From contig JBBQZX010000003.1 of assembly GCA_038207335.1 (NCBI GenBank), positions 192,001-256,000 of the forward strand: a DNA stretch of 64,000 nucleotides, written 5' to 3'. The stretch is from Chthoniobacterales bacterium (GTDB lineage: Bacteria; Verrucomicrobiota; Verrucomicrobiia; Chthoniobacterales; Chthoniobacteraceae). The position numbers and the translations under genes are program-made. The notes below the pieces were generated by a model, which saw nothing but the letters and a program-made list of their open reading frames with translations, made no database searches and was not told the DNA's origin. How positions within the stretch are numbered: position 1 is the first letter of the stretch; the number at the start of each line of letters is the position of its first letter. Positions 19,544-50,068 of this stretch are shown here, piece after piece.

Positions 19544-20854
19544 TTAGCGCTTTCCGAGCAGCGCGCCAAATGGCTTCCAATGCCCGCTTTCACCCTGCTT
19601 CGCGCCGGCCTGAAAAGCTGCAATATCGCGCTGTAGCTCGCGCACGCTGGCATAGCGATCTTCCGGCGCGCGACTGAGCGCTTTCATGGCGATCGTGCCC
19701 AGTGCCTCGGGCATGCGGCTGCCGGGGCAGTGGGACAGCGGCGTTTTGTGAAAGCTGGCAATCGGCTTCAATGACCCGGTGAGGATTTGCTCGAGCATTT
19801 TCAGCTCATCTTCTCCCTCGATAGGTGGCTGGAGCGTGAGCACTCGGAAGAGGATCGCGCCGAGGCTGTAGATGTCGCTGCGGGCTGCGATGGCGTCGTA
19901 TGCCGCGGTCGCCTGCTCGGGTGAGGTGAATGCGGTGACCGATGGAAGCGCATCCGCCTCGGAGGCGCGGAGCGGGTCGGCGAGGGGCTCGCCTGCGGCA
20001 TTGGTGTTCTGGATTTTCGCCAAGCCCCAATTGACCACGAAAACCTCGCCAAATTCACCGATCGTGACGGCGTTCGGGCGAAGCCCACAGTGGATCACGC
20101 CGCGCGAGTGCGCGAATGCAACGGCATCGCAAACTTTCTGAAATACGACGAGCAGCGATGCGAGTGTGTGTTCCTCAGATGCCGTGCTGGAGCCGTTTGC
20201 GAGGCGGTCAAGCACATCAGCGAGCGACTCACCTTCCACGAAGCGGGTGGTGTAAAAAAGCTGGCTCTGCGCATTCACATCCAGCTCGAAGATCGGCAGG
20301 ATGCCAGGGTGCGTGAGCTGGCTCGCGATTTGAGCCTCGCGGACGAATCGCAGGACGTTCGCGGCGCCGGCCTGGCTCTCGGCACGCATCACTTTCGCCG
20401 CGACGATGCGGCCCAAAGTCGTGTCACGTGCCTCGTAAATCGCGCTCGTGCGTCCCTGCACGACGATCTCGCCGTTGTCGTAGCGGTGCGCGCGGAGGAA
20501 GCCCGGAGGTAGCGCGGAGAACACGGACGCCGGCAGCCCGCGGCGGCCAAACTCGCATCTGACGCGGCCGATTTCGATGCGACTGCGAAGGTCCACTCTG
20601 CGCTTTTCCGTAATGCGCCTGCCGTCGATGGATGAGCCATTCGCGCTGGCGAGATCTTCGAGAAAAATCTCGCGCTCGCTGGCGATTGTGAGCCGAGCGT
20701 GCTTCGAGGAGACGGAGGGCTCGTCGATCGCGATTTCACATTTGCGATCCTGGCCGATGACGTACGTGCCGCGCTGGATCAGGCAGCGCGCGAGCAGAAT
20801 TCCGTCGGCGTCGCGAAATATAGCTTCGAGCGGAGGCAGTGTCGGGGGGGGCAT
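19544..20854 (-). CDS. FHA domain plus Hanks-type kinase-like domain, probably a pseudokinase
   Basis: FHA (SxxH, NG); VAAK, RFVREAQI, SPEQ, SDIYSLG; catalytic motifs degenerate. Confidence 0.85.
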   Translation of the reverse strand: MPPPTLPPLEAIFRDADGILLARCLIQRGTYVIGQDRKCEIAIDEPSVSSKHARLTIASEREIFLEDLASANGSSIDGRRITEKRRVDLRSRIEIGRVRCEFGRRGLPASVFSALPPGFLRAHRYDNGEIVVQGRTSAIYEARDTTLGRIVAAKVMRAESQAGAANVLRFVREAQIASQLTHPGILPIFELDVNAQSQLFYTTRFVEGESLADVLDRLANGSSTASEEHTLASLLVVFQKVCDAVAFAHSRGVIHCGLRPNAVTIGEFGEVFVVNWGLAKIQNTNAAGEPLADPLRASEADALPSVTAFTSPEQATAAYDAIAARSDIYSLGAILFRVLTLQPPIEGEDELKMLEQILTGSLKPIASFHKTPLSHCPGSRMPEALGTIAMKALSRAPEDRYASVRELQRDIAAFQAGAKQGESGHWKPFGALLGKR

Positions 20855-20937
20855 CGTTCAAATTTTAGCAGCAAACGTCGAACCAGCCAGGGCTCTTGAT
20901 TTCACGGCGATGTGCGCCTGGTACCGCAAGTCGAAAG

Positions 20938-23217
20938 TTACGGATTCTTGCCGGTGCCGCCGCCGGTTAGCGATTCGGGATCAAGATTCAGAGGGATCCG
21001 CACGCTCGGGAAATCTTTCAGCGTGAAGGTGAGAACGAACCCGTAGTCGGTGACGCCGCCATTATCGCGGATGTTCACGCCGAGTGCGGCGACCCAGCTC
21101 GAAAGGTCGCGGTGTACTGTGTAGGACTGGCTCTCAAGCGTGCCGTCGGTGATTTCGTATTGCTCGCGCGCGCTCACCGCCCAGTTGTCGTTGATGCGGT
21201 AGTAGCCGCCGAGGACGAGGAGATTACTATCGTAGATCGCGCTGTTGCCGCTGATGTAGCGGTGGCCGACATCGACGCGAAGATTCTGATTCGCGAAAAA
21301 GTTGAGCGCCGTGTTCACCTCGGTGAATCCTTTGTCGAAGACTGGAATCTGCGAGTCCACCGTCAGGTTCACCCACGGGAGCGGATACCATCGGAAGCGG
21401 TTGAAGAGGTTTGAAAATGTGCCGTCATCCTGCACGACATCGCCGACGAATTGCGGACGGTCTATGTTTACGTCGAAGTAGGTGTCGAGCTCGAACCAGT
21501 TGAACGTGAGATTGTCCCGCCGCGTCTGGAGGCGGTTGCGGACGCCGAGGCGGAAGATCGACCAGTTGTCGATCGAGTCGATCGTGTTGAACTCGGGAAA
21601 ATCGATTGGCTGGAGCTGCGTGGAGCGATTGAGGCGATCGAATTGCAAAATCTCCGACGGGTCGTTGCCGCTGTAAACGTAGGACAAGTTCGCATACGGC
21701 TGGATGACGTGGCGCAAGCCATCGAGCCCGAGCATGCGCGACTGAACCTGCTCGTAAGCGCGCGAGACTTTGAACGACGCCTCGACGTTTGCATTCACGA
21801 CGGGGCGGAAAACTGAGCCACTCCCGTTGAGGACGCTGCGCGTCGTGGACGTCGTTTTCGGGGGAGCACCGGGCGTGTCGGATGGATTACTCGTGATCGT
21901 CGTCTCATCCTGAAAACGCCCGCTGTTTTCGTAATAAGTGCCGCGCACGCCGACGTGCGGTACGATGGAAAGCCAGCCGAAATAAGTGCCCGGATAGCTG
22001 AACTGATGGAACGTGTCGGCGCGGAATGTCTCGTAGTCATCGACGAGTGAACTGGCCGCGAAATTCCGCCGATAATATCCGGCGCTCGTCTCGCCGTCGT
22101 AGAAAACGCGGGAGCCGAAGAGCGGCTGGCGCTTGATGTCCAGAGCACCTTCCGGGAGCCGCTCCGTGAGATCGAAATAGTCTTCATTCAGGTTTTTCCG
22201 AGCGATGAAATTGAGGGAATAATCTTCGTCCCACTTCGTCAGTGCGAAGACGTTGTCAGGGTTCGGGTTGGTGTGAAATTCATGCGGCGCGAAATCTTGC
22301 AGCACGCGCGCGTCGCTGAGTTTGTTGATGTCGATCGAGGCGTAGATGTCCTCGGTCAGATAAGTGCGATCTTGAAACGAAACACGGTAGCGGCTCGGGT
22401 CGATCGGCTCGCGGGTGAGGGATGTTTTATTCGTGCCGGGGCTCGAGTCGTTGATGTAGTAGCTGCGAAATCGGCCCCAGCCGCGCTTCTTCTCGTGTCC
22501 GCCCCAAAGCGACTCCAGGCCGATCCCGACGCCGCGGTCGGCGAGGATGTCGAGTCGCAGTTTCGCGGAGATATCGCCGATGGGAAATGTGTAGGTGCTG
22601 AGCAGAGCCGCGCCCCAGGTGCTGCTGTAGCCGGGGACGATTTGCAGGCCCTCTTCCTTGTCTAGCGACTGGTGCAGATACGGGAACCAGAAGATCGGAG
22701 TGCGGCCGACGTAGATCATGACGTTGCTAAAAACGACGCGATCTTTCGGATAAATGCGCACCGTTTTCGCGCGGATGTAGTAGTCGGGCTTAGAGTTGTC
22801 GCTCGTGGTGAAAAGCCCGTCCTTCACGAGATACGCATTGCTCCCGAGCGTGCTGAGCGAGTCGCCGGCGAAGCGGAACGGGTAGAAATCGCCGCGAAAG
22901 GAAGCGGCTGTGAGCTGCTTGCTCTCCAGATTGTAAACCGCGCGTTCACCGGTGAAGAGATTGCCCTCACGGTAAATCCGCACATTTCCCTCGACCAAAA
23001 CGTCGCGCGTCTCGGCGTTGTATTGCGCATGGTCGCTGTAGATGACGACCTCGCCGTAGCGGATAACGACGTTCTGATCTGCAGTCGCGAGGCCGCGCTC
23101 GAAGCCCGTCTGCTCCGCGTTGATCTCGATCGGCGCGTCGCTGAAATTGCCGAGCTGAGCCAACGCGCCCGACGTGAACGCGAGGAAAAGCGCGAGGCGA
23201 AGAAGCAGTCGATTCAT
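20938..23217 (-). CDS. lptD: LPS-assembly outer-membrane protein LptD
   Basis: Signal peptide, OstA-like N-terminus (PIEINAEQ, VEGNVRIY), beta-barrel strands, RHVIQPY. Confidence 0.85.
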   Translation of the reverse strand: MNRLLLRLALFLAFTSGALAQLGNFSDAPIEINAEQTGFERGLATADQNVVIRYGEVVIYSDHAQYNAETRDVLVEGNVRIYREGNLFTGERAVYNLESKQLTAASFRGDFYPFRFAGDSLSTLGSNAYLVKDGLFTTSDNSKPDYYIRAKTVRIYPKDRVVFSNVMIYVGRTPIFWFPYLHQSLDKEEGLQIVPGYSSTWGAALLSTYTFPIGDISAKLRLDILADRGVGIGLESLWGGHEKKRGWGRFRSYYINDSSPGTNKTSLTREPIDPSRYRVSFQDRTYLTEDIYASIDINKLSDARVLQDFAPHEFHTNPNPDNVFALTKWDEDYSLNFIARKNLNEDYFDLTERLPEGALDIKRQPLFGSRVFYDGETSAGYYRRNFAASSLVDDYETFRADTFHQFSYPGTYFGWLSIVPHVGVRGTYYENSGRFQDETTITSNPSDTPGAPPKTTSTTRSVLNGSGSVFRPVVNANVEASFKVSRAYEQVQSRMLGLDGLRHVIQPYANLSYVYSGNDPSEILQFDRLNRSTQLQPIDFPEFNTIDSIDNWSIFRLGVRNRLQTRRDNLTFNWFELDTYFDVNIDRPQFVGDVVQDDGTFSNLFNRFRWYPLPWVNLTVDSQIPVFDKGFTEVNTALNFFANQNLRVDVGHRYISGNSAIYDSNLLVLGGYYRINDNWAVSAREQYEITDGTLESQSYTVHRDLSSWVAALGVNIRDNGGVTDYGFVLTFTLKDFPSVRIPLNLDPESLTGGGTGKNP

Positions 23218-23318
23218 GAGGGCGGGGACGCTAACGAGCGGTCGGAAAAGTGCCAACGCAAAAGGCGGCGCTTACGGCAGACTCGCACCACTCGGCGCTC
23301 CGTCGCATTCTGTGTCGG

Positions 23319-25487
23319 ATGAAACTCCCCATTTTCTCCCCGCTCTTGCTCGCCATCTCCGCCGCGCCGTTGCTCGCCGAGCCATTCGAGGCACGGCCTT
23401 GGACGGAATATCGCACCGTCATGTGGATCGGCGACAGCGCCTCGAAAAATCCGGACAAGCTCCCGCTTTTCTACAAGCGCCTCCAGGAGATGGGCATCAA
23501 TACCGGCATGGTCGGACACGCAGCCGATGCGCGTCCGCTGCTCGCGGCGGGGCTCGGGTATTACGTCGAAAATATCGTCAATCGCGGGCTGTGCCTGAAG
23601 TGGAATGCGGAGGTCAGCGACTGGGAGAAATTCGTGACCGGTTGGGCGAAGACGCGCGACGACGCGGGACTCGTGCGGGAGTATTCGCTCGACGATCCGG
23701 CGTGGCTCACGGCGGCGGCGAAAGACGTGGAAGAGGTCGTGAAAAAGAACGCTGCGCTAAAGCCGCTCGCTTACGATCTTCGCGACGAACTCTCGACGAC
23801 GATGTCGGCGAATCCGTTCGACTACGACTTCTCGCCCACCGCGTTGGAGGGCTTTCGCAAATGGCTGCAGGGCGAATACGCCGATCTCGATGCGCTGAAT
23901 CGCGAGTGGGCGACGAACTTCAAAACGTGGGAGGAGGTGCGGCCCCTCACCACCGACCAGATCAAAAATCGCATGGCCAGCGGCGACGCGATCCCGCGCG
24001 GAAAGCCCGACTGGCAGGCGTTGCAAAAGCTGAAGTTCGACCCCACGACCGCGACGAAAGAGCCCGGGCGCTGGAATTTTGCGCCGTGGGCCGACCACCG
24101 CACGTACATGGATGTCTCGCTCGCGCGGACGCTCGATGGGCTCCGCCAGACCGCGCACGCGATCGACGCGCACACGCCTGTCGGCATCGAGGGGACGCAG
24201 ATGCCGTCGGCATTCGGCGGTTACGATCTCGCGCGGCTCTCGGGCGCCCTCGACTGGGTCGAGCCGTACGATATTGGAAACTCGCGCGAGATTTTCGGCT
24301 CGTTCATGCCCGGTAAGCCGATCGTCACGACCGTCGGCGAGCAGGATGCAAAATCCGCGCAACGCCGCCTCTGGCATCTCCTGCTCGAGGGCGACAAAGG
24401 GTGCATCATCTGGTGGAGCGAAGATTGCATCGATTGGAAGAGCGACGACTACGCGCTCACGCCACGCGCCGCCGCGCTCGCGCCCGTCTTGAAAGAACTC
24501 ACCTCGCCGCTCGCGCATCTATTCATGCGGGCTCAGCGGGAGTTCGACCCAATCTTCCTGCACTACTCGCAGCCGAGCATTCAGGTCGATTGGCTCCTCG
24601 GTTCGACCGAGGACGGCTCCACATGGCTGCGCCGATTCTCCAGCTACGAGGCCAGCCACAACCGCCTCGTGAAAGTCCGCAACGCCTGGCTGAAGTCGCT
24701 CACCGATCTCGGATTTTCGCCGCGCTTCATCTCCACCCAGCAGATCGAAAAGGGCGAACTCGACCGCGGCGTGCTGGACGGCGCGAAGGCGCTCATCCTG
24801 CCGTCGTCGCTCGCGCTGACGGACGCCGAGGCCACGCGCATCCGTGCCTTTGCCAGCGGGGGCATCATGACGCATGTGCTGCTCGGCGATGGCGCGCCGG
24901 GGTGCTTCGATGGGCATGGAAAATTGCGCGCCGCGCCCGCGCTCGGGGAGACATTCCCGCTCGCAGGGTCGGCGGAAAAAGCCACCGCCCGCAGCATCGA
25001 CGCGATATCGATCGGCTCACACGCGCCACTCAAAACAAAGATCGTGAGCAAAGACGGTGACATCGCGACCTACAACTCCACCCGTGCCGCCGCCACGCCC
25101 GACCTCGCGTGGCCCGAGTGGATCGCCGCGCAGCTCGGCGACCTCCGCCCGCCGATCACCGTCCCGCTCGGCTCCCGCACCGCCATCTTCCGCTACCGGC
25201 TCGGCACCGCTCAGCTCGTCGCATTCGAGCGCAACATCTCCTACCAGATGAGCGAGGACCTCAAGCAAGCCGGCGGCAATGGCGCACTCGAAAAGCCCAT
25301 CGAAATCCGCGCCACCCTCCCCGCCGCCGCGCACATCTACGACCTGCGCACCCAGAAATACCTCGGCCAAGCCGACCACATCGACATCGCGCTCGACCCC
25401 TGGCACCCATCCCTCTACGCGGTCCTCCCCGAGAAAATCGACCCCGCCCACCTCATCGAGACCCTCGCCGCCGCGGCGAAACCCTAA
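23319..25487 (+). CDS. Secreted GH42/beta-galactosidase-like glycoside hydrolase with trimerisation-type domain
   Basis: Signal peptide; DLRDE; FRKWLQGEYADLDALNREWATNF; KALILPSSLALTDAE. Confidence 0.7.
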   Translation: MKLPIFSPLLLAISAAPLLAEPFEARPWTEYRTVMWIGDSASKNPDKLPLFYKRLQEMGINTGMVGHAADARPLLAAGLGYYVENIVNRGLCLKWNAEVSDWEKFVTGWAKTRDDAGLVREYSLDDPAWLTAAAKDVEEVVKKNAALKPLAYDLRDELSTTMSANPFDYDFSPTALEGFRKWLQGEYADLDALNREWATNFKTWEEVRPLTTDQIKNRMASGDAIPRGKPDWQALQKLKFDPTTATKEPGRWNFAPWADHRTYMDVSLARTLDGLRQTAHAIDAHTPVGIEGTQMPSAFGGYDLARLSGALDWVEPYDIGNSREIFGSFMPGKPIVTTVGEQDAKSAQRRLWHLLLEGDKGCIIWWSEDCIDWKSDDYALTPRAAALAPVLKELTSPLAHLFMRAQREFDPIFLHYSQPSIQVDWLLGSTEDGSTWLRRFSSYEASHNRLVKVRNAWLKSLTDLGFSPRFISTQQIEKGELDRGVLDGAKALILPSSLALTDAEATRIRAFASGGIMTHVLLGDGAPGCFDGHGKLRAAPALGETFPLAGSAEKATARSIDAISIGSHAPLKTKIVSKDGDIATYNSTRAAATPDLAWPEWIAAQLGDLRPPITVPLGSRTAIFRYRLGTAQLVAFERNISYQMSEDLKQAGGNGALEKPIEIRATLPAAAHIYDLRTQKYLGQADHIDIALDPWHPSLYAVLPEKIDPAHLIETLAAAAKP

Positions 25488-25552
25488 ACTCAACCAGTTT
25501 TCAGAGAAAGACGCCCTCGGCACGGTGTTCGGAAAGGGCGGCGGCATTAGTC

Positions 25553-25732
25553 ATGGTGACGTCGCTTGTTCTGTTCCTTGGCGGCTGTGCGGACGAAGTC
25601 GAGGAGCCGTCCGTCGTCGAGAATTGTTGGATAGGTGGTTCCGGGAATGCCGCTGATATGTGGAAGCCCAATCCAGAGATAGTTTCGGTTGGTTGTCGAG
25701 CGGACAACTTGAACCGGAAAGGAATTAAGTAA
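25553..25732 (+). pseudogene. Possible remnant of a lipoprotein gene
   Basis: MVTSLVLFLGGC-ADEV lipobox-like start, stops after 59 aa, lower-GC region. Confidence 0.25.
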
Positions 25733-26225
25733 TTCGGAATAATCACCTCTCCGCAGCGCGCTCGCCTGCTAAATGAAGGATACGGTCCCGCGGTGAGAGG
25801 GCGTCATCGGACTGGTGGTTCGCAACACCGGAAAGGTTCAACGCATCTCCGAAGTCCTGAAAGATCACGGGCGCTGAAGTTCATGGATGATGGGCTAACG
25901 GTAGCTAGGCGAAGTGGCTGGTGGTCGCAGTGGGTGGTCGGCTGCGCCGAGCCAAGTGCTGCCGTAGTGATTGCGTGGCGTGGGCGGAGGCTTCTGTTTC
26001 GTAGCGCAGCAGGTCCGACCTAATGGCGACGTTCTCCGCTCCCGCGATGAGCGGGGCAAGCTCGAAATGGAAACCTTCCAGCTCCCGCTTGGCCCAGAGT
26101 TGGCAATGCCGGCGCGGATGTTTCTCCCGCCCCCTCCGCAAAGCGCGGCGCCTGTGAAAAGCGGGCGGTGATGAGAGGCGGAGATTGTATGGGGGGCGGG
26201 GGAGGTGTTCTTCTGGGTGACTGCC

Positions 26226-27488
26226 ATGCCGAACGACTCCGATCCTTCATATACACTCGCACGCGAACGCTATGCCGGCATCGGCGTGGATGTGGAGGGG
26301 GCGCTGGAGGCGCTGGCGGGGATTCCGATTTCGCTGCACTGCTGGCAGGGGGATGATGTGGGGGGATTTGAGAATGCGGGCTCGGAGCTGAGTGGCGGAA
26401 TCGCGGTGACGGGGAATTATCCGGCGAAGGCGCGGACGGCGGCGGAGTTGCGCGGGGATTTGGATAAGGCGCTGTCGCTGATCCCGGGGCGGCATCGGGT
26501 GAATTTGCACGCGTGTTACGCGGAGCTCGGCGGGCGGAAGATCGAGCGAACGGATTACACGATCGAGCATTTTCAAGATTGGGTGGACTGGTGCGGGGAG
26601 CAGGGGATGGGGCTCGATTTCAATCCGACTTTTTTCGCACATCCGCGCGCGGCGGATGGCTTCACGCTGTCGCATCGGGAGGGGAGTGTGCGGGAGTTTT
26701 GGATCGCGCATGGGATCGCGTGCCGGCGGATCGCGGCGGAGGCGGGGCGGCAGCTCGGGAATGCGGTGGTGACGAATTTTTGGATTCCCGATGGCTTCAA
26801 GGACACGCCTGCGGACCGGCGCGCGCCGCGGGAACGGCTCGCGGAATCGCTCGATGAGATTTTCGCGCAGCCGATCGATCCGGCGCTGAATCTGGATGCG
26901 GTGGAGTCGAAGCTCTTCGGGCTGGGGAGCGAAAGTTACGTGGTCGGGTCGCACGAGTTTTACCTCGGGTATGCGATCTCGCGGCAGAAGCTCTACTGCC
27001 TGGATGCGGGGCATTTTCACCCGACGGAATCGCTGGCGGACAAGGTGTCGTCGGTGCTGCAATTCGTGCCAGGGCTGCTGCTGCATGTGTCGCGCGGGGT
27101 GCGCTGGGACAGCGATCACGTGGTGCTGCTGGATGATGCGACGCGCGAGATCATGGAGGAAATCGTGCGCGGTGGATTCCTGCCGCGGACGCACATCGGG
27201 CTGGATTTCTTCGATGCGAGTATCAACCGGATCGCGGCGTGGGTGATCGGCACGCGCAACGCGCTGAAGGCGCTGTTGCTCGCGCTGCTGGAGCCGGCCC
27301 AGGAGTTGCGCGCGGCGGAGGCGGCGGGGGATTTCACCGCGCGTCTGGCGCTGATGGAGGAGGCGAAATCGATGCCATTCGGCGCGGTATGGGACGAGCA
27401 CTGCCGCCGCGCGGGTGTGCCGGTCGGCGCGGCGTGGCTCGCCGATGTGCGCGCCTACGAGAAGGACGTGCTGGCGCGGCGTGTGTAG
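26226..27488 (+). CDS. rhaA: L-rhamnose isomerase
   Basis: [58 protein letters not shown]. Confidence 0.97.
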
Positions 27489-29548: not shown

Positions 29549-29642
29549 GTTTCTAATGGGTGAATGGCAAATGAGTCGCGAAGCTCACATGACGAATGCA
29601 GTCGCGCCGCGAGGCTCGCGGGAGTAGGACTTTCTGCCACCC

Positions 29643-35834: not shown

Positions 35835-38800
35835 CTACTCGCTCGGCGGAATTGCTTCGCGGACGAGTGCGCCGTTCGCCTCGCTCATGATGAGGATCGA
35901 CATGCGCGCGACTTCGCCGATTTCGTCCGGACGCAGCATTTGCGTGTCGAGCGTCGCGGTGTCGGCCGTGGCAGTGCGCGGCATCGGGACGACGGGTGGC
36001 ACGGGGTGCTCGCTGGAGTTCAGGCTCGCGTAGTCGAAGCGCCCGCGGAGGTCGGTGTAGCCGTCTTTGTAAAAGCGCACCTGGCCGTTCTTCAGCCGCG
36101 CGTACACTTTCACGTAGGCCTTGCTCACGGGCCGATTCGCGGCCTGGTCGCGAAGCTCGAGACGCCCGTAATTTTCCGCCAGCGTGAGCCGCAGCGTGTT
36201 CGCGTGATGCGCCTCCGTCTTGCGCTGTCCGGCGCCGAGCACCTCCACGAGCACGTTCGATTTCGCAAACTCCGCCGGCAGCGGAATCTCCATCGCCTCC
36301 TTGTCCGCGGGCAAAACCTGCCGCACGGATTTGCCCGGCTTGATGATCGAAAAGCGGCTCGCGTCTTGCGTCACGAACGGGCTGCTGCTGAAGAGGAACT
36401 CCGGGTCCATGAGGTAAAAATTCACTGTCACCTCGCTCAGATTTTTCCATGTCATCGCGATCGCGCCACCTTCCACTTTGAACTCGAACGACGGCTCCGT
36501 CGATGCGAGTTCGCCCTGCTGTCCCTCGCGGTTTGGCTTCCCATCAGGGTTTGCGGGCGGTTGCGCTTTTCCTTCGATCTCGTCGAGCTGAGCGGTCACG
36601 CCGGAGAAAATCTTGCGCCAGCGATCCACGGGATACGCAGCGTATGCCGCGGCCACGGTGCGCGCGTCGGCAAGCTTTTCCTCATAAAACGCGGCGTAGC
36701 AGCGGAAGTAATCGTGCTGGATGCGAGTCGGCAGCTCCGCCGGTTTCACGCTGGCGAAGAGCGCCAGCGCCTCCTCCACGCGATCCTGCAGGAAGAGGAA
36801 ATAGACGACGCTCATTCGATCCATCGCGTCGAGCGCGGGCTTGTGCGCGAGGATGCCGAGCAGCGCCTGATACTGCCCGCGCACGACGGGATTCGGGATG
36901 CGGCTCTCGCCACCGAGTCGGTGCGAGCGCTGGTTCACGAGCGGGCTGTATTCGAGCTCCTGAAACGTGCGGCGCTCGATGGGGTCGATCGTGATCAGCT
37001 TGCTCGCGAGGTACGGCCCGCAGCGCGCGAGGAAGTCGTCGTGATGACGCAGCCATTCACGCAGCGCGTCGGTGTCGTCGTGGACGACCGCATACGAATA
37101 AATCGTGTCGTTGTAGATGTGCCGCTGCTCTAGCACGCCGATGAGTTTGCGGAAAAAGTCCGCGCTTTTCCTCGCCCGCCACGCGATGCGCTCAAGGCTG
37201 ATTTGCTCGAGACTGTGCGCCGCGAGAAATACGAACACGTCCGCATCGGTGCCATTTTGCGACACGTAATCCCACGAGGTCGTGTCCGGCTTCGTGAGCT
37301 TTTGCACCACGTTGAATGCAAACGCCTTGCCCGCTCCCACCGTCATTTCATCGCGGGAGACATGCACGGGGTAGTGCGGCAGCTCCTCCTTTGCCGGCGC
37401 GGGGAAGTAGAAGAAATACTCGAGCCGCTGCGTCGTGTAGGACTCCAGCCGCACGCGTTTGCTGTCGGTCGCCTTGCTGCCGAGCACCGGCAGCGCGCCG
37501 CGCGGGATTTGAAGGAGCAGCGCGAGTTTCTGCGGCGCGGAGGTCGGGTTCGTCACGACCACATTCGCGCCATACACGACGCCCGCGATGAATTCGCCCG
37601 TCACGTATTTGTCGAATTTTTCACTCCCCTCGGCCCGCACGCGATCGTCCTGCCGGAAAAAGTTTTCGCTCACGAGCAGCTCGCCCTGCTGCGGCGCGGC
37701 TTGCGCCGGTTTGATCTCCTTGTGGAAAGCGATGAGCGCTCCTGCCGCCGTGAGCGTGAACTGCCGCCCAGCGGTTTTCGTCGCGTGCTTCGGTGCCTCG
37801 AAGGGCAGGTCGAGCGCTGCGAGCGCGAGCATCATCTCGGAGAAGTTATGGCTCGCCTCCGCGACGCTTTTCGACAGGAACGGCGCCTTGCCATCCCAAG
37901 CCGCGAAGTCGCTCCAGAAGGCGTTCACTGGGATCAATTCCGCCGTCTGCTGATCGAGCGGGAGGTTGTAGTAATTGTTCTCCGCCCATTCTTTCGTCGG
38001 CCCCAGCGCGCGGAAAAACTGCCGCACAGTGCCGCGAAGCCGCACGGCATCCTCGTCGAGAGCGAGCCCGAAATACGCTACGGTCTCGGGGAGTTTGATG
38101 GCGTCGGACTTACTGAATGCGTCGGACAACTCCTCCAGTTTTTTGTCATCTTTTTGCGTTGCCAGCGTCGCCATCCGCGTAACGCCCGCGACTCTTCCGG
38201 CCATCGTCGTTGCCATCGGCTTCGCAGCCGACTTGACCTGCATCTCCGCGAGTGCTGGAGCCGCCGCCGGCTCCAGCACATCCATCGCCACCGCCTGCTC
38301 CTTTGCCTCGCCAAACGCGCCCCCTGACGCGCCCTGCAGCGCCTTGCCTCGCAGTGCGGTTTCAAAAAACAGGTCATCGCGTTCCGCATCCGGCGGCTGG
38401 AGGTCGAGCGTCTCGCGCAGGTGTCGCGCGATGCCGGCGGCAGCGGCGGGCAGGCGTTGCGCGAGCAGCGCGCGCTCGGCGGCGTTGAGGCGCTCGAATT
38501 TCCACGGCTCCAAAAACCGCGACAGGTCCGTGCCGAGCAGCCATTCATCGAGGAACTGCTTCTCCTTTTTATTCGCCAAGTTCGGCTTCACCACTTTGGC
38601 GAAAAAGTCGGGGTCTTTCCGCGACAGGAAGAAGTTCAACTCGTGGCACGCGAACTCCGAATACTTCGCGCGCTTCTCCTCCTCCTTGAGCTTCGGCCAG
38701 TCGAGGATCCACGCGAATTTCGCGAGATTCGCATCGTGGCTGAGCGTGGTGAAAAGCGCGTGGATCGACGCGAGCGAGTCGTAAGCCTCCAGCTCGGAAG

Positions 38801-41800
38801 TGAGCAAATCCGGCAGCACCAGCGTCTGGCCGGTCGCGAGGAGACTCACCTCCTTGCGCTCGCTGAAGGGCTTTTGCGGATCGAGATTCCGCGTCAGCCG
38901 CAGGTCTTGAAATTTCGTCGGCACCTCCGGCAGCGCGAACGATCGCATCACCGCGCTCGTCAAATCCTCCGCATAAACCTGCACCTGCTGCCGGTCGCCG
39001 AGCAGCTTCTTGGGAATCCACGCGATGCCGTTTTTGTCGGGGACGATGTTGAAAAAAGTCGGCGCGACGGTGGCGAGAAAGTCGAGGTCGGGGGTGGGAG
39101 TTTGCATGATCGATGCCTGCGCCACATCTCCGCGTGCTGCGCGCGACATCGGGTCCGCAATTTTCTGCCGCACCTCCCGATCGCCCGCGGCTGCTTTAGC
39201 TGTCTCCCCGGCCGCCATTGATTGAGCGCTCAAGTCTGTGGAGCGCACCTCCCAGGGATTCAACAGGAGGCCTGGTCGCGGGAGCATGTTGCCCGGGAAA
39301 ATTTTCGAGTATCGACGCTCCAAGATGTAGCGGAACTCGTCCCCGATGGGACGACCCGCCGCGAAGAGATTTGGTCTCCGTGCAGGTGTCACGATGCCCG
39401 GCGTTGGTTGCTCGAAGTGAGCAAGCGTCGTTAAAAAATTCCCGGAATCGGGGTAAAAGTGCGTTGCCGCTACGTGCACTCGCGTGAACGCATTTACGTT
39501 ACGGATCTGCGCCGCGAATGAGTCACCGTCGTCCCGGATGTTTTCGATTTGCACCGGTTCAAATGCGCGGACTTCCAAATCGCGGCTCTTCGAGACAAGC
39601 CAGTTCAATACCGGAGCACCGGCGGTTACCCGGATGTCGAAATGTCGATCGTCCGGCTGCACGACCAACGTGTAGTCGCCTGGGGTCAGTCCTTTGACGT
39701 GCACGAATCCGCGAGCGATCGAGATCTCGGCAAAATGATCCGCGACATACGAATCGCCGACTTTCTCCAGCAGTGAGGCGTCCTCGGGCCGCAGCGGACC
39801 TGCGCCGCCAAACCACGGGACTTCGATCATCTGTCCTGCGCGCGCGTGGATGACCCGCGTCTGTATGGACTCATCGAGTTTAAGCGCCCAAGTCCGCTGA
39901 CCGACGCCGTTCGCAAACGACGCTCGCACGCTCCCGATTCCATCGAGCGCACCGAGATCCACCCGGCCGCGGGCATCGCTTCGCAGCGCGATATTGATCG
40001 TGTTGCGAAAGTCGCGATGCGTGAGCTCGATGACGATTTGCTGATCCGCCAGCGGCTCCGCGTTTTTGCCGAGAAGATCGACCACGTATGCCGCACCGAT
40101 CCGGGCGAAATGCGCGTCGACTGTCGCCGCGGTTTTATCGATGCCGTTCACCTCCCATGTTTTCGTCGCCGAGACTTCGTTCTTCTCCCCGCCCGCGCTG
40201 AGATTTTCCACCTTCGCGGTGAGGGTGACCGTGAGCGTTGCGAGCCGCTCGGGCACCGTGAATTTCTGCGTCTCGTCGCGCTTCGGATCGAACGCGATGC
40301 CCGTCACATCTTTGGTCGTCGAGATGCCGTCGAGCGTCGTTGAGGTGATCGCGAGTTTCACATCCTGGAGCAGGCTCGGCGCGATGATCGCGTCGCCGAG
40401 ACGCAGCGCCGCGCGGATCGCCAGCGTGGCCTCGCGCCCGCCGAGGAGCTGCTCGCGCGGGATGTGAAATTGCGCGTCGAGCGAGTAGCTCTCCGCGTGA
40501 TGCTCGAAGCTCGTGAGCGTCGCAAATTCGCCCGCCGCATCCGCGAGGATCACCGGCTTCGTCCCCGGCTGTTTCGTGAACGGCACGATGATTCGACCGG
40601 TCTTTTCGTCAGGAGTCAATTTGCGTCCGTCCAGCCATGCCACAGCATCCGGCACGATTTGCTGCGCCTCGTCGATGATGCTGAGCATGTCGCCCGCGGG
40701 GCCGGTCTGCTGCAGCACATGCCACTGCCCCTTGCGGATGAGAACGCGGCTCGATTTCCCTCCACCGATGAATTCGATGACCCACGCGCCACGCCGTTTC
40801 GCGAGTTCGGGGAACTTGAAAGTGCGCGGCGTGCGCAGCAGCGGCGCCGCCATGATTTGCTCGGTCTTTTCCGAGTTCGCCACGAGCCCGTCGAGCGGCA
40901 GGTCGGTGTTGAGCTGGCGGTTGTTCGCGAGGAAAAAGCTCAGCGCGTTCACCTCGTAGATTTTCACGATCAGCTTCGGCGCGTTCTTCGTGATGACATC
41001 GATCGCGACCGGATCGGCGGGCGCGAAGAACTGCGGATTCGCCGGATTGAAGTCGATATCGACGCGCTCTTTCAGCGCCTGGAATGCTGTGGGAGAGAGC
41101 AACGCCGCCCATTTCTCCGGCGCGCCAACGCCGTGCGTGATCTTCGATTCTGCAAAGATCGGCTTGAGAAAATCGTCCCGCAGATACGGCGCAAAGGCGC
41201 CCCAATCCGGCGCGTCTTTCAGCAGCTCGAGCAGGAACTCGCGTACCAGCCAGGTGTCGTCGCCGATCGGCGTCGAGATGCTGAGCGCCGCGCCGTTGAG
41301 GTCGGCATTCAGGTCGATCGCGTGGTCGCCGCGGCTGCCGCGATCGAGATATTCCGGGCGCATGTATCCGGCGCGTCGCGGGAGTTTCAGATACTCGAGA
41401 AAGCGCGCCTTGTCGTAAACGCCGCGGCTGCGGTCGAGCAGCAGACGCGCGTGCAGGATGTGCGCTTTGAGCGTGTTGAAACTCTGGCTCAAATTTTTCG
41501 CGTAGCCCCACGCGCGCTCCAGCCACGCTTCCCGCTCCGCGAGGTCAAACTCGATATCGACATCCGCATTCGGCAGAAATTTCCGCAGCCGCGTGAAGAC
41601 GAACTCCTGGCTGTCCAGCAAGCCGGGGAGCTGTTTTGCGAGCTGATCGAGCTGCTCGGGGAGCAGCAGTTTGTGGATCGGGTATTCGCCGAATCCGCGG
41701 CTCTCCTTCGTCTGCAAATCCGCCGCGATGAGCGCGACCAATCCCTCCACATCCGGTCGCTGAATCGCGCTCAACAAAGAGCGCCGCTGCGATGGAGTGA

Positions 41801-42492: not shown

Positions 42493-43128
42493 ATGCGAAT
42501 CGCACTTTGCCTCGCTTTTCCTCTCATCGCGTTACTCGCGGGCTGCGCTTCCCGGCCGCTTCCGAAGTATGAGAAGCCAATCGCTCGCACTGCCGTGCAG
42601 AGCGTCCGCACGACGGCCTACACACACACGGAGGCCGACCACATCAAGCACGGGAGCAGCACGGCGCTCGGCACGCAGTTGCAATCCGGCGAAATTCACA
42701 GCGCGGCGGCGGACTGGTCGCGCTGGCCGGCGGGCTCGCGGTTTCGGATCGTGGAGACGGGTGAAATTTATCAAGTGGATGACTACGGATGGGCGCTCGC
42801 CGGGACGAATACGATCGACCTTTACAAGCCGACGCGCGCCGACATGAACGCGTGGGGCGTGCGCCGTGTGACGATCGAAAATCTGCAATGGGGCGACCCG
42901 AAACGCAGCGTAGCCGTGCTGCGCCCGCGATCAAAATACGCGCACATCCGGCGGATGCTGGAGGAATTCAAAAAGAACGACATGACGTTCCCCGCGCTGC
43001 CGCAAAACGCGCCGCTGCTGGCGGTGGCCGCGCCCGCGCCCGCGCCAGTCTTTACCGCCGTCCGCGCGGTGCCGGTTGGCGGAGAAAGGTCCGACTTGAA
43101 GCCATTCTACGCGCCCGCCGGGCAGTGA
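42493..43128 (+). CDS. Lipoprotein with 3D (MltA-like) domain
   Basis: Lipobox LLAG-C; VRTTAY, AAADW, VDDYG, TIDLY. Confidence 0.82.
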   Translation: MRIALCLAFPLIALLAGCASRPLPKYEKPIARTAVQSVRTTAYTHTEADHIKHGSSTALGTQLQSGEIHSAAADWSRWPAGSRFRIVETGEIYQVDDYGWALAGTNTIDLYKPTRADMNAWGVRRVTIENLQWGDPKRSVAVLRPRSKYAHIRRMLEEFKKNDMTFPALPQNAPLLAVAAPAPAPVFTAVRAVPVGGERSDLKPFYAPAGQ

Positions 43129-43157
43129 ATGTCGTCCATCACGAAAGCGCTACAGCG

Positions 43158-46100: not shown

Positions 46101-46907
46101 CCGCACGTAATCCACCTCCATCTTCGTCGTGCTCGTGCTCGCATCGCCGTATCCACCCGACGGGATTTGCCCCGCCCACGACTCGAAGCTCCCGCCCCCG
46201 ATGATCGTCGAGAGATAAATCCACTGCCCCCGCATCGACACCGCCTGCGTGCTGCTCGCGACCTGCACGCTATCGATGTAAAAAGTGTATCCGGCCGGCG
46301 TCCAGTGCAGTCCGTAAGTGTGCCAGTTTCCCTGCAGGGCCGAGTTGCCGCTCCAGTTATTCACGAGCCCGGGCCCGCCGCTCAAGCCCGCCGTGCCGTA
46401 ACTATTCCAATGCAGGGCCTCGTAGGCTTTATCGGAAATATTCGCACCGCTCGCGTCCTGCTTCCGGTGCTCCACGATGTCGATTTCGGTCCCATTGTTC
46501 GCCGGGTCCGGCGGCGTCGAAACCGTGTTGATGGAGTCCGGCTGGAGCCAAAAAGCCGACCACGTCGCGCTCGCGCCATTGAATCGAATCCGCGCCTCCC
46601 AATATCCATACACCGCATCGAAATGCCCCTGCGTCCCGATCCATCCCGTGTGATGCACCCCGCTCGCAGCGTTCGTCCACGTCAGGATCGTCAAAATCCC
46701 ATTTCCCACCGAGACATCCGGCGCAGTGCCGGACATGAAACCATTCCGATACTGCCCTGTGAAATTGCTCCACTTCGAGCCATCCAGCGCCGTCCCGTCG
46801 AACTCATCACTCCACACCTGCGTCCACCCATTTCCCGGAGGTGCCGCATTCACCGCTCGCCCCGAAACGAGCACAGCAATAGCGAGGACGTGGAGAAAGC
46901 GATACAT
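43158..46907 (-). CDS. Multimodular secreted GH16 glycoside hydrolase (CBM-like repeats, Ig/PKD-like domains, LamG)
   Basis: WSDEFDG, WSAFW, EIDIVE catalytic motif, WHTYG, VDYVR; two WSK(V/I)SGPG repeats; LamG WHHVALT...LDDFRLY. Confidence 0.88.
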   Translation of the reverse strand: MYRFLHVLAIAVLVSGRAVNAAPPGNGWTQVWSDEFDGTALDGSKWSNFTGQYRNGFMSGTAPDVSVGNGILTILTWTNAASGVHHTGWIGTQGHFDAVYGYWEARIRFNGASATWSAFWLQPDSINTVSTPPDPANNGTEIDIVEHRKQDASGANISDKAYEALHWNSYGTAGLSGGPGLVNNWSGNSALQGNWHTYGLHWTPAGYTFYIDSVQVASSTQAVSMRGQWIYLSTIIGGGSFESWAGQIPSGGYGDASTSTTKMEVDYVRFFRPAEGLEDADLEARKQPWAGSNSNWVSGTNGVEASSGTTGAALSAASATATLAQTVYGLQPNTGYVLTGWGRGAATIGVNSHGGTEVSQIVTGTSFAKATVPFTTGAFNRTATIFARAAAGSGTSYVDDFLLRRGATVTNGSLERGDDVAWNLYGGTVVADSGSIHSGTYALTFPASTSSAGAEQEVVGLTPGTAYRLSAWTNNGGKGLTFGVKNHGGSQVTTGVTASVWTRGTVNFTTGASNTTGTIFAFRGSSTAAEYADSFFLAQPLPAPWVSQDVTTIPLAGTSGVRGTKFAIQAAGADIWSTSDKFHFVNRPMTGDCQLTARILGLDATNAAAKTGVMMRESATSFVRSVTVDWTPAGTVEVLTRSASSGSTSAVVVTGITDPPWVRLLRRGNVFTASYSTDGVAWTVIGAPQTVAMSTSMLVGLPACSHDEALFTEAVLDEVSVIVPPPDVALPDAVTLDGAATSLRLTAAITDSGGQGVPAVLWSKVSGPGSVTFAPANTAATAASFSQTGAYVLRCSATTTAGAGSADIAVAVFPAPDASLAVWLKMNETSGATAFDSSSNSRNATLFNSPTWTSGVLRNALNFNGSSQYATLPSGVAAGLTNFTAAVWVKATAVSAWARVFDFGTGTTNYMFLAPMAGAGGPLRFAINNGSGEQRIDAPAALTAGAWHHVALTLSGTTGILYLDGVEAGRNSAMSLKPSSLGTTTLNYLGRSQFSADPYLNALLDDFRLYSRALAPGEIAALAAASPAPSLLTGPAPTAINGVTTTLAGTAVSELADTLTAAWSKISGPGAVTFGNPASPATTLTFAQSGSYVLRLTGTNSIAQDFAELSITAAPNPNLFADWQSIAWPGISDPAIIAPLADPEHDGCVNLIEYALGTDPTAAGDGVLPGTVWRNVGGTEYLALEIRRPIGRTGITYSAEATGDLAGWSAAIQDGAPASNGDGTETLYFRDTVPRGTAPRFLRLKITQP

Positions 46908-47080
46908 CGCGGGGGAGGGTGCGATCCTAGCGCAAAACAGATCGAACACTAGCGGTTGCTGAAATCGGCATTCCAACAAGCCATGCGTCCTGACTGGCCG
47001 CGGTGGTCGTTGCAACCGGGATCGGCGATCCTGCTTACAGGATTGACGGCGCGTAGATGCGCGCAACATTTATCGCCCCA

Positions 47081-50068
47081 ATGCGCCCCATTTTCTCGAT
47101 GATCCTACTGGCTGCTGTGCTGCCGCTGTCGGCGCGAGCGGGGAAGGTGAGTTTTAATCGGGATGTGCGGCCGATCTTGTCGAACAATTGCTTTTTCTGC
47201 CACGGGCCGGATGAGAAGAAGCGCGAGGCAAAGCTGAGGCTGGATGTCCGCGAGAGCGCGCTGGCGGATCACGAGGGGGAGCGGGCGATTGTGCCGGGGA
47301 AGCCTGAGGAGAGCGCGGTGATGGAGCGGTTGCTGACTCACGACAAGGAGGAGATGATGCCGCCTTTCAAGAGCAAGCGGCCACCGGTGACGACGGCTCA
47401 GGTGGAGACGCTGCGGCAGTGGATTGCCGAGGGCGCGGAGTACGAGGCGCACTGGGCTTTTCTCCCGATCGCGGATGCCGCGCCGCCGGAGGTGCGGGAT
47501 GCGGGGTGGGTGAAGAATGGGGTGGATCGTTTCATCCTGGCGCGGCTGGAGGGGGAGGAGATCACGCCTTCGCCGGCGGCGGATGCGGGGACGCTTTGCC
47601 GGAGGATGTATCTCGATGTGACGGGACTGCTGCCGACGCCGGATGAGGTCGCGACTTTCACAAAAGCAATGTCGGCGGATCGCGATGCGGCGGTGTCGGC
47701 GCTGGCGGACAGGCTGCTGGCGAGCCCGCACTATGGGGAGCGTTGGGGCCGGCACTGGCTGGATCAGGCGCGGTATGCGGACTCGAATGGCTACACGATC
47801 GACTCGGCGCGGGCGATGTGGCCGTTTCGGGACTGGGTGATCGAGGCGCTGAATGAGGACATGCCTTTCGAAAAATTCACGGTGGAGCAGCTCGCGGGGG
47901 ATTTGCTGCCGAAGCCGACGAAGAGCGATTTGATCGCGACCGCGTTTCACCGAAATACGACGATCAATGAGGAGGGTGGGTCGGATAAGGAGCAGTTCCG
48001 CAATGAGGCGGTGGTGGATCGCACGAATACGACGGCGACGGTGTGGCTGGGGCTGACGGTGGGGTGCGCGCAGTGCCACTCGCATAAGTTCGATCCGATC
48101 TCGCACCGCGAGTATTATGAGATGTTCGCGTTCTTCAACTCGGGGACGGATGTGAACAACAAGGGGGCTACCATCGAGGTGGCGCGCGGGGAGGTGTTTG
48201 GGCATCCGGTCGCGAAGAAGGCGGAGCCGCGGCCTGCGGATGCCGGTGAAATCAAGGCTCAGCAGGAATGGGAGCGCGCGGAGCTGGCGCGGGCGACGAC
48301 GCCGCAGGGAGAGGTGAAGTGGTCGCCGGCGGCTTACGTGGAGTATGACACGGCGACGGGCGCGGGCTTTCAACTGCTGCCGGATAACTCGCTGCTGGCA
48401 GACGGACGCGGGGCTTTCAATGACACGTATCGCGTGGTGGCGAAGACGGAGCTGAAGCAGGTGGCGGCTGTGCGGCTGCGGGTGCTGACGCATGAGTCGC
48501 TGCCGAAGAATGGGCCGGGGACGGCGAGCAATGGGAATTTTGTGCTGACGGATTTCGAGGCGAGCGCGGGGGGGGAGGATCGGGCGTTTGCGCGGGCTTT
48601 TGCGGATCATGAGCAGGCGACGTATCCAGTGTCGGCGGCGATCGATGACAAGCCGAAGAGCGGGTGGGCGATCAATGTGGGGAAGGGCGAGAAGGCGAAA
48701 ATGAACGCGGATCACGAGGCGGTGTTCATCTTCGAGAAGGCGGTGCCGGGCGGGCAGCCGATCGAGTTCAAGATGCACCACGATCTCAATGAGAAATATC
48801 TCATCGGGCGGTTCGCGCTGGAGTTTTCGGAGATGGCGCCGAGTGGGGATGGGGCGCTGGTGACAGCGCTGAAAGTGCCTCCGGCAAAGCGTTCGGAGGC
48901 GGAGGCAAGGATTGTGAGGGAGGCGTTCGAGCGGACGAAGCCGCAGCCGGCGAAGGAGACGGTGGATGCGAAGCGGGATTTCGCGGAGCTGATGGTGATG
49001 AAGGAGACGGATGAGCCGCGGGTGACGTTCGTGCATCTGCGCGGAGACTTTTTGCGGAACGACGAGAAGACGGGGCACCTGAATCCGGGGGGGCTGAGTG
49101 CGGTCGCGCCGCCACTGCCGGCGGCGGCTGGGAGGACGCGACTGGACCTCGCAAAGTGGATCGTGGATCCGGCGAATCCGCTGACGGCGCGGGTCGCTGT
49201 GAATCGGATTTGGGCGAAGTATTTCGGGCGGGGGATCGTGGAGACGGATGAGGACTTCGGCGCGCAGGGGTCGGCGCCGACGCACCCGGAGTTGCTGGAC
49301 TGGCTGGCGCGGGAGTTCGTGCGCGGCGGGTGGTCGATGAAGGCGATGCACCGGCTGATCGTGACTTCGGCGGCGTATCAGCAGAGCTCGGCGGCGCGGC
49401 CGGACTTGGCGGAAAAGGACCCGCGCAATTTGCTGCTCGCGCGGCAGGAGCGGCTGCGTTTCGACGCGGAGATCGTGCGGGATGCGGCGCTTTCGGCGAG
49501 CGGGTTGCTCGCGCCGGAGGTCGGTGGGCCGAGTGTGCATCCGCCGCAGGCGGAGGGGGTGTATGCTTTCACTCAGGATAAGAAGAAGTGGACGGCGGAC
49601 ACGGGCCCGGATCGCTTCCGCCGCGCGCTCTACACGACCTTTTACCGCGCCGCGCCGTATCCGCTTTTCACGACGTTCGACGCGCCGGATTTCCAGACGA
49701 CCTGCACGCGCCGCGCCCGGTCGGACACGCCGCTGCAGGCGCTGACGGTGGCGAATGACCCGGCATTTCTGGAGCTCGCGCAGGGGCTTGCAGCGCGACT
49801 TTTGCGCGAATCTCCGGCAGGCACGGAGGCTCAGCTCCGGCGCGCCTTTGTGCTGTGCCTCTCGCGCGAGCCGAGCGCGAAGGAGTTGCAAATCTTCCGC
49901 GACTACTTCGACCGGCAAGCGGCGATGTTCGCCGAAGATGCAGACTCCGCCGCCGCGCTGCTTTCCCCCGATCTGAAAGGGAGCGGAACGCCGGCAAACG
50001 CTGCTGCCGCGTTGGTCTGCGCCGCTCGCGCGTTGCTGAATACGGACGTGTTCATCAGCCGGGAATAG
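47081..50068 (+). CDS. Planctomycete cytochrome c / DUF1549 (PSCyt2) / DUF1553 (PSD1) protein
   Basis: VRPILSNNCFFCHG, YGERWGRHWLD.ARYADS, CAQCHSHKFDP, PTHPELLDWLA, TPLQAL. Confidence 0.93.
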   Translation: MRPIFSMILLAAVLPLSARAGKVSFNRDVRPILSNNCFFCHGPDEKKREAKLRLDVRESALADHEGERAIVPGKPEESAVMERLLTHDKEEMMPPFKSKRPPVTTAQVETLRQWIAEGAEYEAHWAFLPIADAAPPEVRDAGWVKNGVDRFILARLEGEEITPSPAADAGTLCRRMYLDVTGLLPTPDEVATFTKAMSADRDAAVSALADRLLASPHYGERWGRHWLDQARYADSNGYTIDSARAMWPFRDWVIEALNEDMPFEKFTVEQLAGDLLPKPTKSDLIATAFHRNTTINEEGGSDKEQFRNEAVVDRTNTTATVWLGLTVGCAQCHSHKFDPISHREYYEMFAFFNSGTDVNNKGATIEVARGEVFGHPVAKKAEPRPADAGEIKAQQEWERAELARATTPQGEVKWSPAAYVEYDTATGAGFQLLPDNSLLADGRGAFNDTYRVVAKTELKQVAAVRLRVLTHESLPKNGPGTASNGNFVLTDFEASAGGEDRAFARAFADHEQATYPVSAAIDDKPKSGWAINVGKGEKAKMNADHEAVFIFEKAVPGGQPIEFKMHHDLNEKYLIGRFALEFSEMAPSGDGALVTALKVPPAKRSEAEARIVREAFERTKPQPAKETVDAKRDFAELMVMKETDEPRVTFVHLRGDFLRNDEKTGHLNPGGLSAVAPPLPAAAGRTRLDLAKWIVDPANPLTARVAVNRIWAKYFGRGIVETDEDFGAQGSAPTHPELLDWLAREFVRGGWSMKAMHRLIVTSAAYQQSSAARPDLAEKDPRNLLLARQERLRFDAEIVRDAALSASGLLAPEVGGPSVHPPQAEGVYAFTQDKKKWTADTGPDRFRRALYTTFYRAAPYPLFTTFDAPDFQTTCTRRARSDTPLQALTVANDPAFLELAQGLAARLLRESPAGTEAQLRRAFVLCLSREPSAKELQIFRDYFDRQAAMFAEDADSAAALLSPDLKGSGTPANAAAALVCAARALLNTDVFISRE

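Follow-up and report, generated by a model that had tools for sequence, protein, structure and literature searches.

The gap between two neighbouring genes of a Chthoniobacterales bacterium (GenBank assembly GCA_038207335.1) carries an abrupt flip in guanine-cytosine (GC) skew, from C-rich on the left to G-rich on the right. It lies in a window of 64,000 nucleotides (contig JBBQZX010000003.1, positions 192,001 to 256,000, forward strand; window coordinates are used below), between a gene for a GH42-like glycoside hydrolase and rhaA, the gene for L-rhamnose isomerase. The flip is real, steps of the same polarity recur throughout the genome (G000 in our set), and their sites are marked by gene flux. 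The feature is probably undescribed. The leading explanation, at about even odds in our judgement, is that these scars are made by strand-polarised biased gene conversion in the course of homologous recombination with related strains. The features at the locus, and a second switch in the same window, are as follows.

23250..25487, + strand: GH42-like glycoside hydrolase gene (PF02449, E 5.8e-07), whose 3′ end is the C-rich arm.
25050..25487, + strand: left arm, the last three 150-nt bins of the GH42-like gene, with C 64 and G 14 at four-fold sites.
25488..26204, no strand: 717-bp gap where the skew switches (cumulative G-C minimum at 25518) and synteny with the closest relative, G005, is broken.
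25553..26023, + strand: decayed open reading frame (ORF) in the gap, with an in-frame stop at 25730-25732 and, by our own reading, a lipoprotein-signal-like start (LFLGGC).
25905..26124, no strand: 220-bp segment, 80% identical to a stretch of another strong switch gap (G000:C7:123581-123794, z=7.9).
26205..27488, + strand: rhaA (PF06134, E 1.8e-200), the right arm, with four-fold G at 77-90% in most bins.
46907..47146, no strand: second, stronger switch of the same polarity, in a divergent gap (z=10.4).

The base counts given in the initial annotation (C55/G24 at 25321-25440 and G59/C20 at 26281-26400) were reproduced exactly, and both flanking genes do lie on the + strand. At four-fold degenerate sites, rhaA has G 151 and C 29 between 26355 and 27404, while in the left arm the C-rich strand is the one heading toward the gap; the cumulative minimum falls immediately 3′ of the stop codon of the GH42-like gene. 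The step at this locus has a z of 8.4, the 36th largest among 3531 gaps, and the highest z over 20 genome-wide shuffles was 4.39. The arms are unequal. The bias had been described as fading over 1-2 kb; the right arm is G-rich for about 2 kb, and the left arm is strongly C-rich for about 0.45 kb. Likewise, the proposed polarity of C to the left and G/T to the right stands for C and G but not for T, the T/A skew at four-fold sites being near zero.

Comparison with relatives indicates that the skew arose here. The G share in the last bins of the GH42-like gene is 8-26% in this genome vs 37-39% in the G005 orthologue (72% identity). Since the nearest rhaA orthologues are far less G-rich (29-62% four-fold G in G009 and 33-58% in G005), rhaA must have gained its skew at this locus. 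Among named RhaA relatives the best (73% identity) is from an uncultured Chthoniobacterales bacterium. In G005 another, convergent gene ends about 65 bp past the GH42 stop, and rhaA lies on a separate contig. The decayed ORF in the gap had no Pfam match among the pieces scanned and is likely a relic of inserted DNA. An integron cassette was considered for this relic and rejected, a regular-expression search of it for an attC hairpin with both core sites being negative and its fold z values being -0.28 and -0.32.

The possibility of chimerism, raised by the initial annotation, was checked with Logan unitigs, which probably come from the source sample and thus represent an independent assembly but not independent DNA. 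One unitig runs across 20000-26363 and another, at 42699-49305, spans the second switch, each with 0 differences. Misassembly, or the juxtaposition of genes from opposite replichores, would agree with the locus being a synteny break, but the gradient runs within single genes and juxtaposition would yield both polarities equally, against an observed ratio of 172:33; we find this explanation hardly credible.

That ratio comes from a survey of the whole genome, in which 3629 genes were called with our own gene model and G vs C was scored at four-fold sites with correction for codon family. Across the 3531 gene gaps that could be scored, upward steps (C left, G right) above z thresholds of 4, 5, 6 and 8 numbered 253, 172, 108 and 42, and reverse steps below the corresponding negative thresholds (-4, -5, -6 and -8) numbered 82, 33, 15 and 0. 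Block variance at 100 sites was 12 times the shuffled value, and the autocorrelation of skew fell from 0.62 at 100 bp to 0.37 at 1 kb, 0.06 at 5 kb and about 0 at 20 kb. A split-half profile has a plateau of 0.2-0.25 out to 1 kb, drops to 0.08 at 2-3 kb and reaches zero by 4 kb. Near the 172 strong sites (z above 5), the outgoing strand has G 59% and C 27% at four-fold positions and the incoming strand G 19% and C 69%, with A and T nearly unchanged; two-fold sites shift toward T and G on the outgoing strand. Even amino-acid use is altered near switches, with valine at 1.07 vs 0.86 and proline at 0.97 vs 1.11. A non-negative dipole fit explained 63% of the non-noise variance vs 41-44% in controls (six contigs), which is modest support. 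Contig ends of this assembly are G-biased in the same outward direction (+0.051+/-0.017, n=64), which would follow if variable loci are where the assembly breaks.

The same polarity is familiar from the chromosomal origin, oriC, where GC skew switches from C-rich on the left to G-rich on the right. Considering this, and the weakness of skew at replichore scale (contig means mostly within +/-0.07), one could imagine many dispersed replication origins, primed by R-loops or recombination, each with leading- and lagging-strand skew around it. Yet the skew is zero by 4-6 kb and stays zero where the next switch is more than 24 kb off, so that no sawtooth appears, and the decay is not lengthened by a greater distance to the next switch. 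The genome has dnaA and RNase HI, the weak long-range skew flips sign near dnaA on contig C8, and the switch gaps share no motif. Dispersed origins thus appear very improbable, and the origin-like role first suggested for the locus falls with the failure of decay length to scale with spacing.

Another proposal equated the flip with a 5′-G to 3′-C gradient along transcription units, and a trend of this kind does exist along genes genome-wide (0.52 vs 0.385). The corresponding mechanism would be deamination of the non-template strand during transcription, whether of genes or from spurious promoters in inserted DNA. However, the step occurs in all four gene orientations, convergent and divergent gaps included; the 108 strongest steps (z above 6) comprise 35 convergent, 53 tandem and 20 divergent gaps. 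Nor does high expression go with a G-rich sense strand: rpoB, rpoC, fusA, tuf and a ribosomal-protein-like cluster have a slight C excess there. The GC content of the gap had no effect. Deamination of single-stranded DNA, also offered at the outset, fares no better, as transition-only models lie about 1100 log-likelihood units below bias models and the C/G bias is context-free. We regard transcription-associated deamination as a very remote explanation.

What distinguishes the sites is gene turnover. Synteny was compared over 1.16 Mb of the roughly 4.4 Mb of G005 (median protein identity 82% over the first 625 kb), with 59 gaps at G005 contig ends excluded. Of 35 gaps with z>4 that could be judged, 33 were breaks in gene order, compared with 186 of 485 neutral gaps, and the contrast persisted in held-out stretches (8 of 9 vs 70 of 197) and among gaps longer than 100 bp (24 of 25 vs 69 of 144). 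Reciprocally, steps of z>4 in G005 were found at 2 of 357 syntenic gaps, 30 of 301 broken gaps and 10 of 154 gaps where neither gene was matched. Native genes beside low-GC foreign genes were polarised by +0.069+/-0.013 (n=185) vs +0.010+/-0.003 for native-native neighbours, and the foreign genes themselves were unpolarised (+0.009). Multi-gene islands had both arms in 11 of 23 cases and the opposite pattern in 3 of 23. A boundary of recent horizontal gene transfer (HGT), named in the initial annotation as a refuting case, is half right: the sites are gene-order breakpoints, but the skew resides inside native flanking genes and is not imported composition.

Selection offers a further way to produce such a pattern, by favouring C-rich, G-poor strands entering gaps, for example as tracts that load Rho and so shield foreign DNA against read-through transcription. 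The pairwise model described below gains little in fit over an additive G/C preference, and mean z is highest in long convergent gaps. Against this, conserved convergent gaps have no step (z>4 in 0 of 25), the bias spans 1-3 kb of translated sense strands and alters the use of valine and proline, no dinucleotide context is apparent, and the skew at rhaA was acquired in this lineage only. Such selection is improbable.

The search for a motif common to the inversion points, which had been recommended, returned none. Enrichment of k-mers among switch gaps gave no shared k-mer, just runs of C/G and REP-like families of small size; among oriented 8-mers, no Chi-like candidate was conspicuous; and the largest mean steps at 6-mer palindromes were 0.01-0.02. 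Features such as attC-like sites, GTAG-REP, tRNA genes and gap GC content had no independent effect, in a regression that accounted for 7% of the variance, and 59% of the 172 strong gaps were free of repeats, attC-like sites, tandem repeats and tRNA genes alike. Repeat-bearing gaps did have larger steps (t=4.6), and 11 of 22 long tandem-repeat gaps exceeded z of 5. Degenerate short tandem repeats or REP-like palindromes can be seen in strong switch gaps, e.g. C5:53431-53873, C13:79836-80373 and C1:125288-125831. Among tRNA-containing gaps, z>3 occurred in 14 of 36 and z<-3 in 2 of 36, an effect not independent of gap length. At G000:C25:1714-8779, an apparently intact comM (525-aa frame) is accompanied by two broken 3′ comM fragments, which look like scars of repeated element integration; a nearby gap (C25:1367-2140) has a step of the same polarity (z=4.6).

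Substitution spectra were modelled by likelihood on codon pairs from G000 and G005, with 105 near-site gene sets and 260 far genes. Negative log-likelihoods were 30683 for transitions only, 29615-29632 for mutation-increase models and 29554-29591 for fixation-bias models, the last with an overall substitution rate near switches of x1.1. Pairwise biases on the outgoing strand of G000 were 3.0 for C>G, 1.4 for A>G, 0.8 for C>T, 0.1 for T>G, -0.3 for C>A and -4.1 for A>T, so that C vs G is the largest bias term, the T/G and A/C terms are near zero and the incoming strand favours T over A. This order is the one expected from mismatch-repair efficiencies. The C/G bias was equal across 12 neighbour contexts (log-odds 2.1-2.7). 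Under these models, the spectrum looks like a strand-specific fixation bias with little increase in rate.

The main rival is mutational. Recurrent breaks or nicks, made by integrases or HUH transposases or arising at fragile repeats, could prime outward error-prone resynthesis that leaves C>G, A>G and C>T changes on the outgoing strand. Its geometry and reach match, the same breaks would cause rearrangements, and the genome encodes DnaE2, an ImuB-like protein and DinB, along with several tyrosine recombinases and three Y1 transposases. Saturation at four-fold sites is more nearly reached in the vicinity of switches (0.83 vs 0.72), repeat-bearing gaps have the larger steps, and the three mutation types are those described beside human meiotic breaks (PMC7615360). 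Nevertheless, mutation-increase fits fall 50-78 log-likelihood units below the best bias models and require other rates to be cut to about 0.64, context dependence is lacking, and low-skew relatives carry the same polymerases. In the human data, moreover, C is lost on the 3′-overhang strand to the left of the break, which by our reading is the opposite polarity (PMC7615360). Error-prone resynthesis is accordingly unlikely in our view, though it deserves to be taken seriously.

How might biased conversion leave such a scar? Variable gaps would differ in content between strains, and heteroduplex would then form mostly on the strand approaching the gap. This could come about through assimilation of the donor strand by a RecA-type reaction running 5′ to 3′ and stalling at the heterology; alternatively, a break at the site would leave the approaching strand as the invading 3′ end, with the same polarity. 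MutS and MutL would next correct the incoming strand, removing G:G and G:T mismatches and missing C:C and largely T:T, so that on this strand C would be favoured over G and T, and A over G. In the rest of the repair hierarchy, G:G and A:A are repaired well, A:G and C:T poorly, and A:C less well than G:T. At a distance from heterologies the two strands would be used equally and the bias would cancel. The footprint would be a non-adaptive by-product and not a functional element. As inferred at every step, this chain would cover the polarity, the reach, the absence of a motif, the link to breakpoints and the spectrum.

Several published findings can be set beside these steps. MutS-type repair is described as leaving C-C unrepaired, with T-T repaired weakly and G-T strongly (PMC5416779), and because C-C escapes, a strand that is repeatedly corrected in heteroduplex would drift toward C. 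In pneumococcal transformation, markers 5′ of a heterology were recovered about 4-fold more often (PMC4824099, citing Pasta and Sicard 1999); on either flank, then, the donor strand would usually be the one that approaches a variable gap. More recombination has been described in core genes flanking HGT hotspots (PMC5635113). In the present genome, co-location with elevated recombination is suggested by proxies, namely synteny breaks and foreign-gene edges, and mutS, mutL, recBCD, comEC, dprA and comM are all present. Loss of an end-resection nuclease was considered as a cause and dropped, as recBCD has open frames at C5:2263-10624; a PF12705 profile search of G000 returned nothing and AddAB was not found. 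Across the family, AddAB and RecBCD apparently replace each other, even within one genus (AddA in G003 and G006; RecC in G000, G001, G004, G005, G009 and G010).

Of course, a good deal weighs against biased conversion as the cause. The pairwise pattern in G005 differs (T>G 2.4, C>A -1.4, A>T -0.5), and the pairwise model outperforms the additive one by about 9 log-likelihood units for 3 parameters (bootstrap 3.5-23, 45 replicates); in a first, smaller fit, a three-pair model was worse than the additive. The choice between fixation and mutation bias comes from a two-genome model at about 41% four-fold divergence, in which a process that raised some rates while lowering their complements would be mathematically identical to a fixation bias, and no strain variation was seen in sequencing run X1. 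A strong step is found at just 33 of 325 breaks, and reverse steps are also somewhat enriched there (12 of 20). Competence is putative here, and no tested repair or competence gene separates G000 and G005 from low-skew relatives: comEC, comM, dprA and dinB do not discriminate, nucS was not above cut-off in any of 11 genomes, and radA/sms was found in 0 of 5 (G000, G005, G006, G007 and G008, the last 54% complete). Elsewhere, heteroduplex patches in E. coli RecBCD crosses are described as about equal on both strands (PMC2082072), B. subtilis transformation is described as non-polar (PMC4824099), and a study of 145 species describes weak excess recombination at island flanks and argues against biased conversion (PMC11879095).

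The phenomenon has a restricted range, as judged from samples of 33-180 kb per genome, in which weak versions could be missed. Variance ratios were 10-13.5 in four 100-kb pieces of G000 and about 8 in G005, which shows the same phenomenon, vs 1.1-3.5 in G002, G003, G006, G007, G008, G009, G014 and G030 and 2.2 in 50 kb of E. coli. Values of 7.2 were obtained for G004, which lacked upward steps, and for 46 kb of G016, and values of 4.8-6.9 for 4 of 18 single loci (11-21 kb) from other genomes of the Planctomycetes-Verrucomicrobia-Chlamydiae group; G001 was left aside because its sequence was too short. The step polarity was not seen in the seven other genus members sampled. These results uphold the original suggestion of a localised, strand-asymmetric process centred on intergenic sites, the steps being genome-wide and restricted by lineage. 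Raised local skew variance was also noted at L141, L151, L215, L217 and G016, from other Verrucomicrobiota and one Pirellulales locus, which may be further lineages with the same process. Elsewhere in the window, the - strand at 35835-42260 encodes a protein of more than 2100 aa that had no Pfam match.

It is conceivable, and we hold it somewhat short of an even prospect, that bacteria have a second, strand-polarised conversion drive, in which directional strand exchange and the blindness of MutS to C:C combine at indels to generate a flanking C|G dipole. If so, skew dipoles would map hotspots of recombination and gene flux from one genome, including those of uncultured lineages, and recombination rather than replication could dominate local base composition in a bacterium, strongly enough to shift amino-acid use. 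The mechanism is testable and bears on two open questions, biased gene conversion in bacteria and the origin of the skewed repeats known as GRINS. In any case, a local flip in skew should not by itself be taken as the sign of an origin or an inverted gene.

Finally, the steps may be placed among known systems. Since they are found whatever the gene orientation, lack a shared motif and any sequence context, and are gone within about 4 kb at any spacing, they are not origins, transcription gradients, HIP1-type anchors or GRINS. Unlike oriC, they involve hundreds of sites and are several-fold stronger than the replichore skew of this genome, and their skew neither persists across the replichore nor scales with the distance between sites; dnaA is on C8, and the switch gaps share no k-mer, although DnaA boxes were not searched by pattern. 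Palindrome-anchored skew of the HIP1 type was rejected on the small palindrome steps given above. The literature covered, which left out most subscription papers and supplements, contained no account of polarised skew dipoles at synteny breaks in bacteria.

Several systems come closer. At human meiotic hotspots, a mirror-image footprint of 1-2 kb with C>G, A>G and C>T changes has been described (Hinch et al. 2023, PMC7615360), but that system is eukaryotic, context dependent, marked by an 8-fold rise in rate and, as we read it, opposite in polarity, while the present one is context-free with a rate of x1.1. GC-biased gene conversion is likewise described as a recombination-linked, non-adaptive fixation bias of mismatch repair (PMC11879095); it is strand-symmetric and alters GC content, whereas the bias here is strand-specific, strongest for C vs G, and alters GC skew. 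The HGT hotspots of Oliveira et al. (2017, PMC5635113) resemble our sites as places of gene turnover flanked by core genes and free of mobile genetic elements, and differ in that the available part of that study reports no strand-skew footprint.

GRINS are duplicated regions of more than 500 bp with correlated GC and TA skew (PMC8256042). Here the arms are single-copy, neither having a genomic match longer than 47 bp (the GRINS definition being >500 bp at >80% identity), and repeats of at least 300 bp lie close to 12 of the 172 strong switches, compared with 34 of the 788 neutral gaps. Mean absolute GC and TA skews, for which the GRINS cut-off is >0.15 in both, are 0.31 and 0.23 in the left arm and 0.24 and 0.105 in rhaA, and the two skews correlate at 0.15 and -0.23 in the two arms. 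TA skew is weak overall, internal repeats are unskewed, and polarity is fixed around synteny breaks. Nonetheless, GRINS resemble the present steps, being described as having intense, kb-scale skew at third codon positions, abrupt flips between G-rich and C-rich stretches, shifts in valine, proline and threonine, a link to gene conversion and a mechanism still unknown (PMC8256042). Should the strand-polarised conversion drive exist, the same rule could explain GRINS as well.

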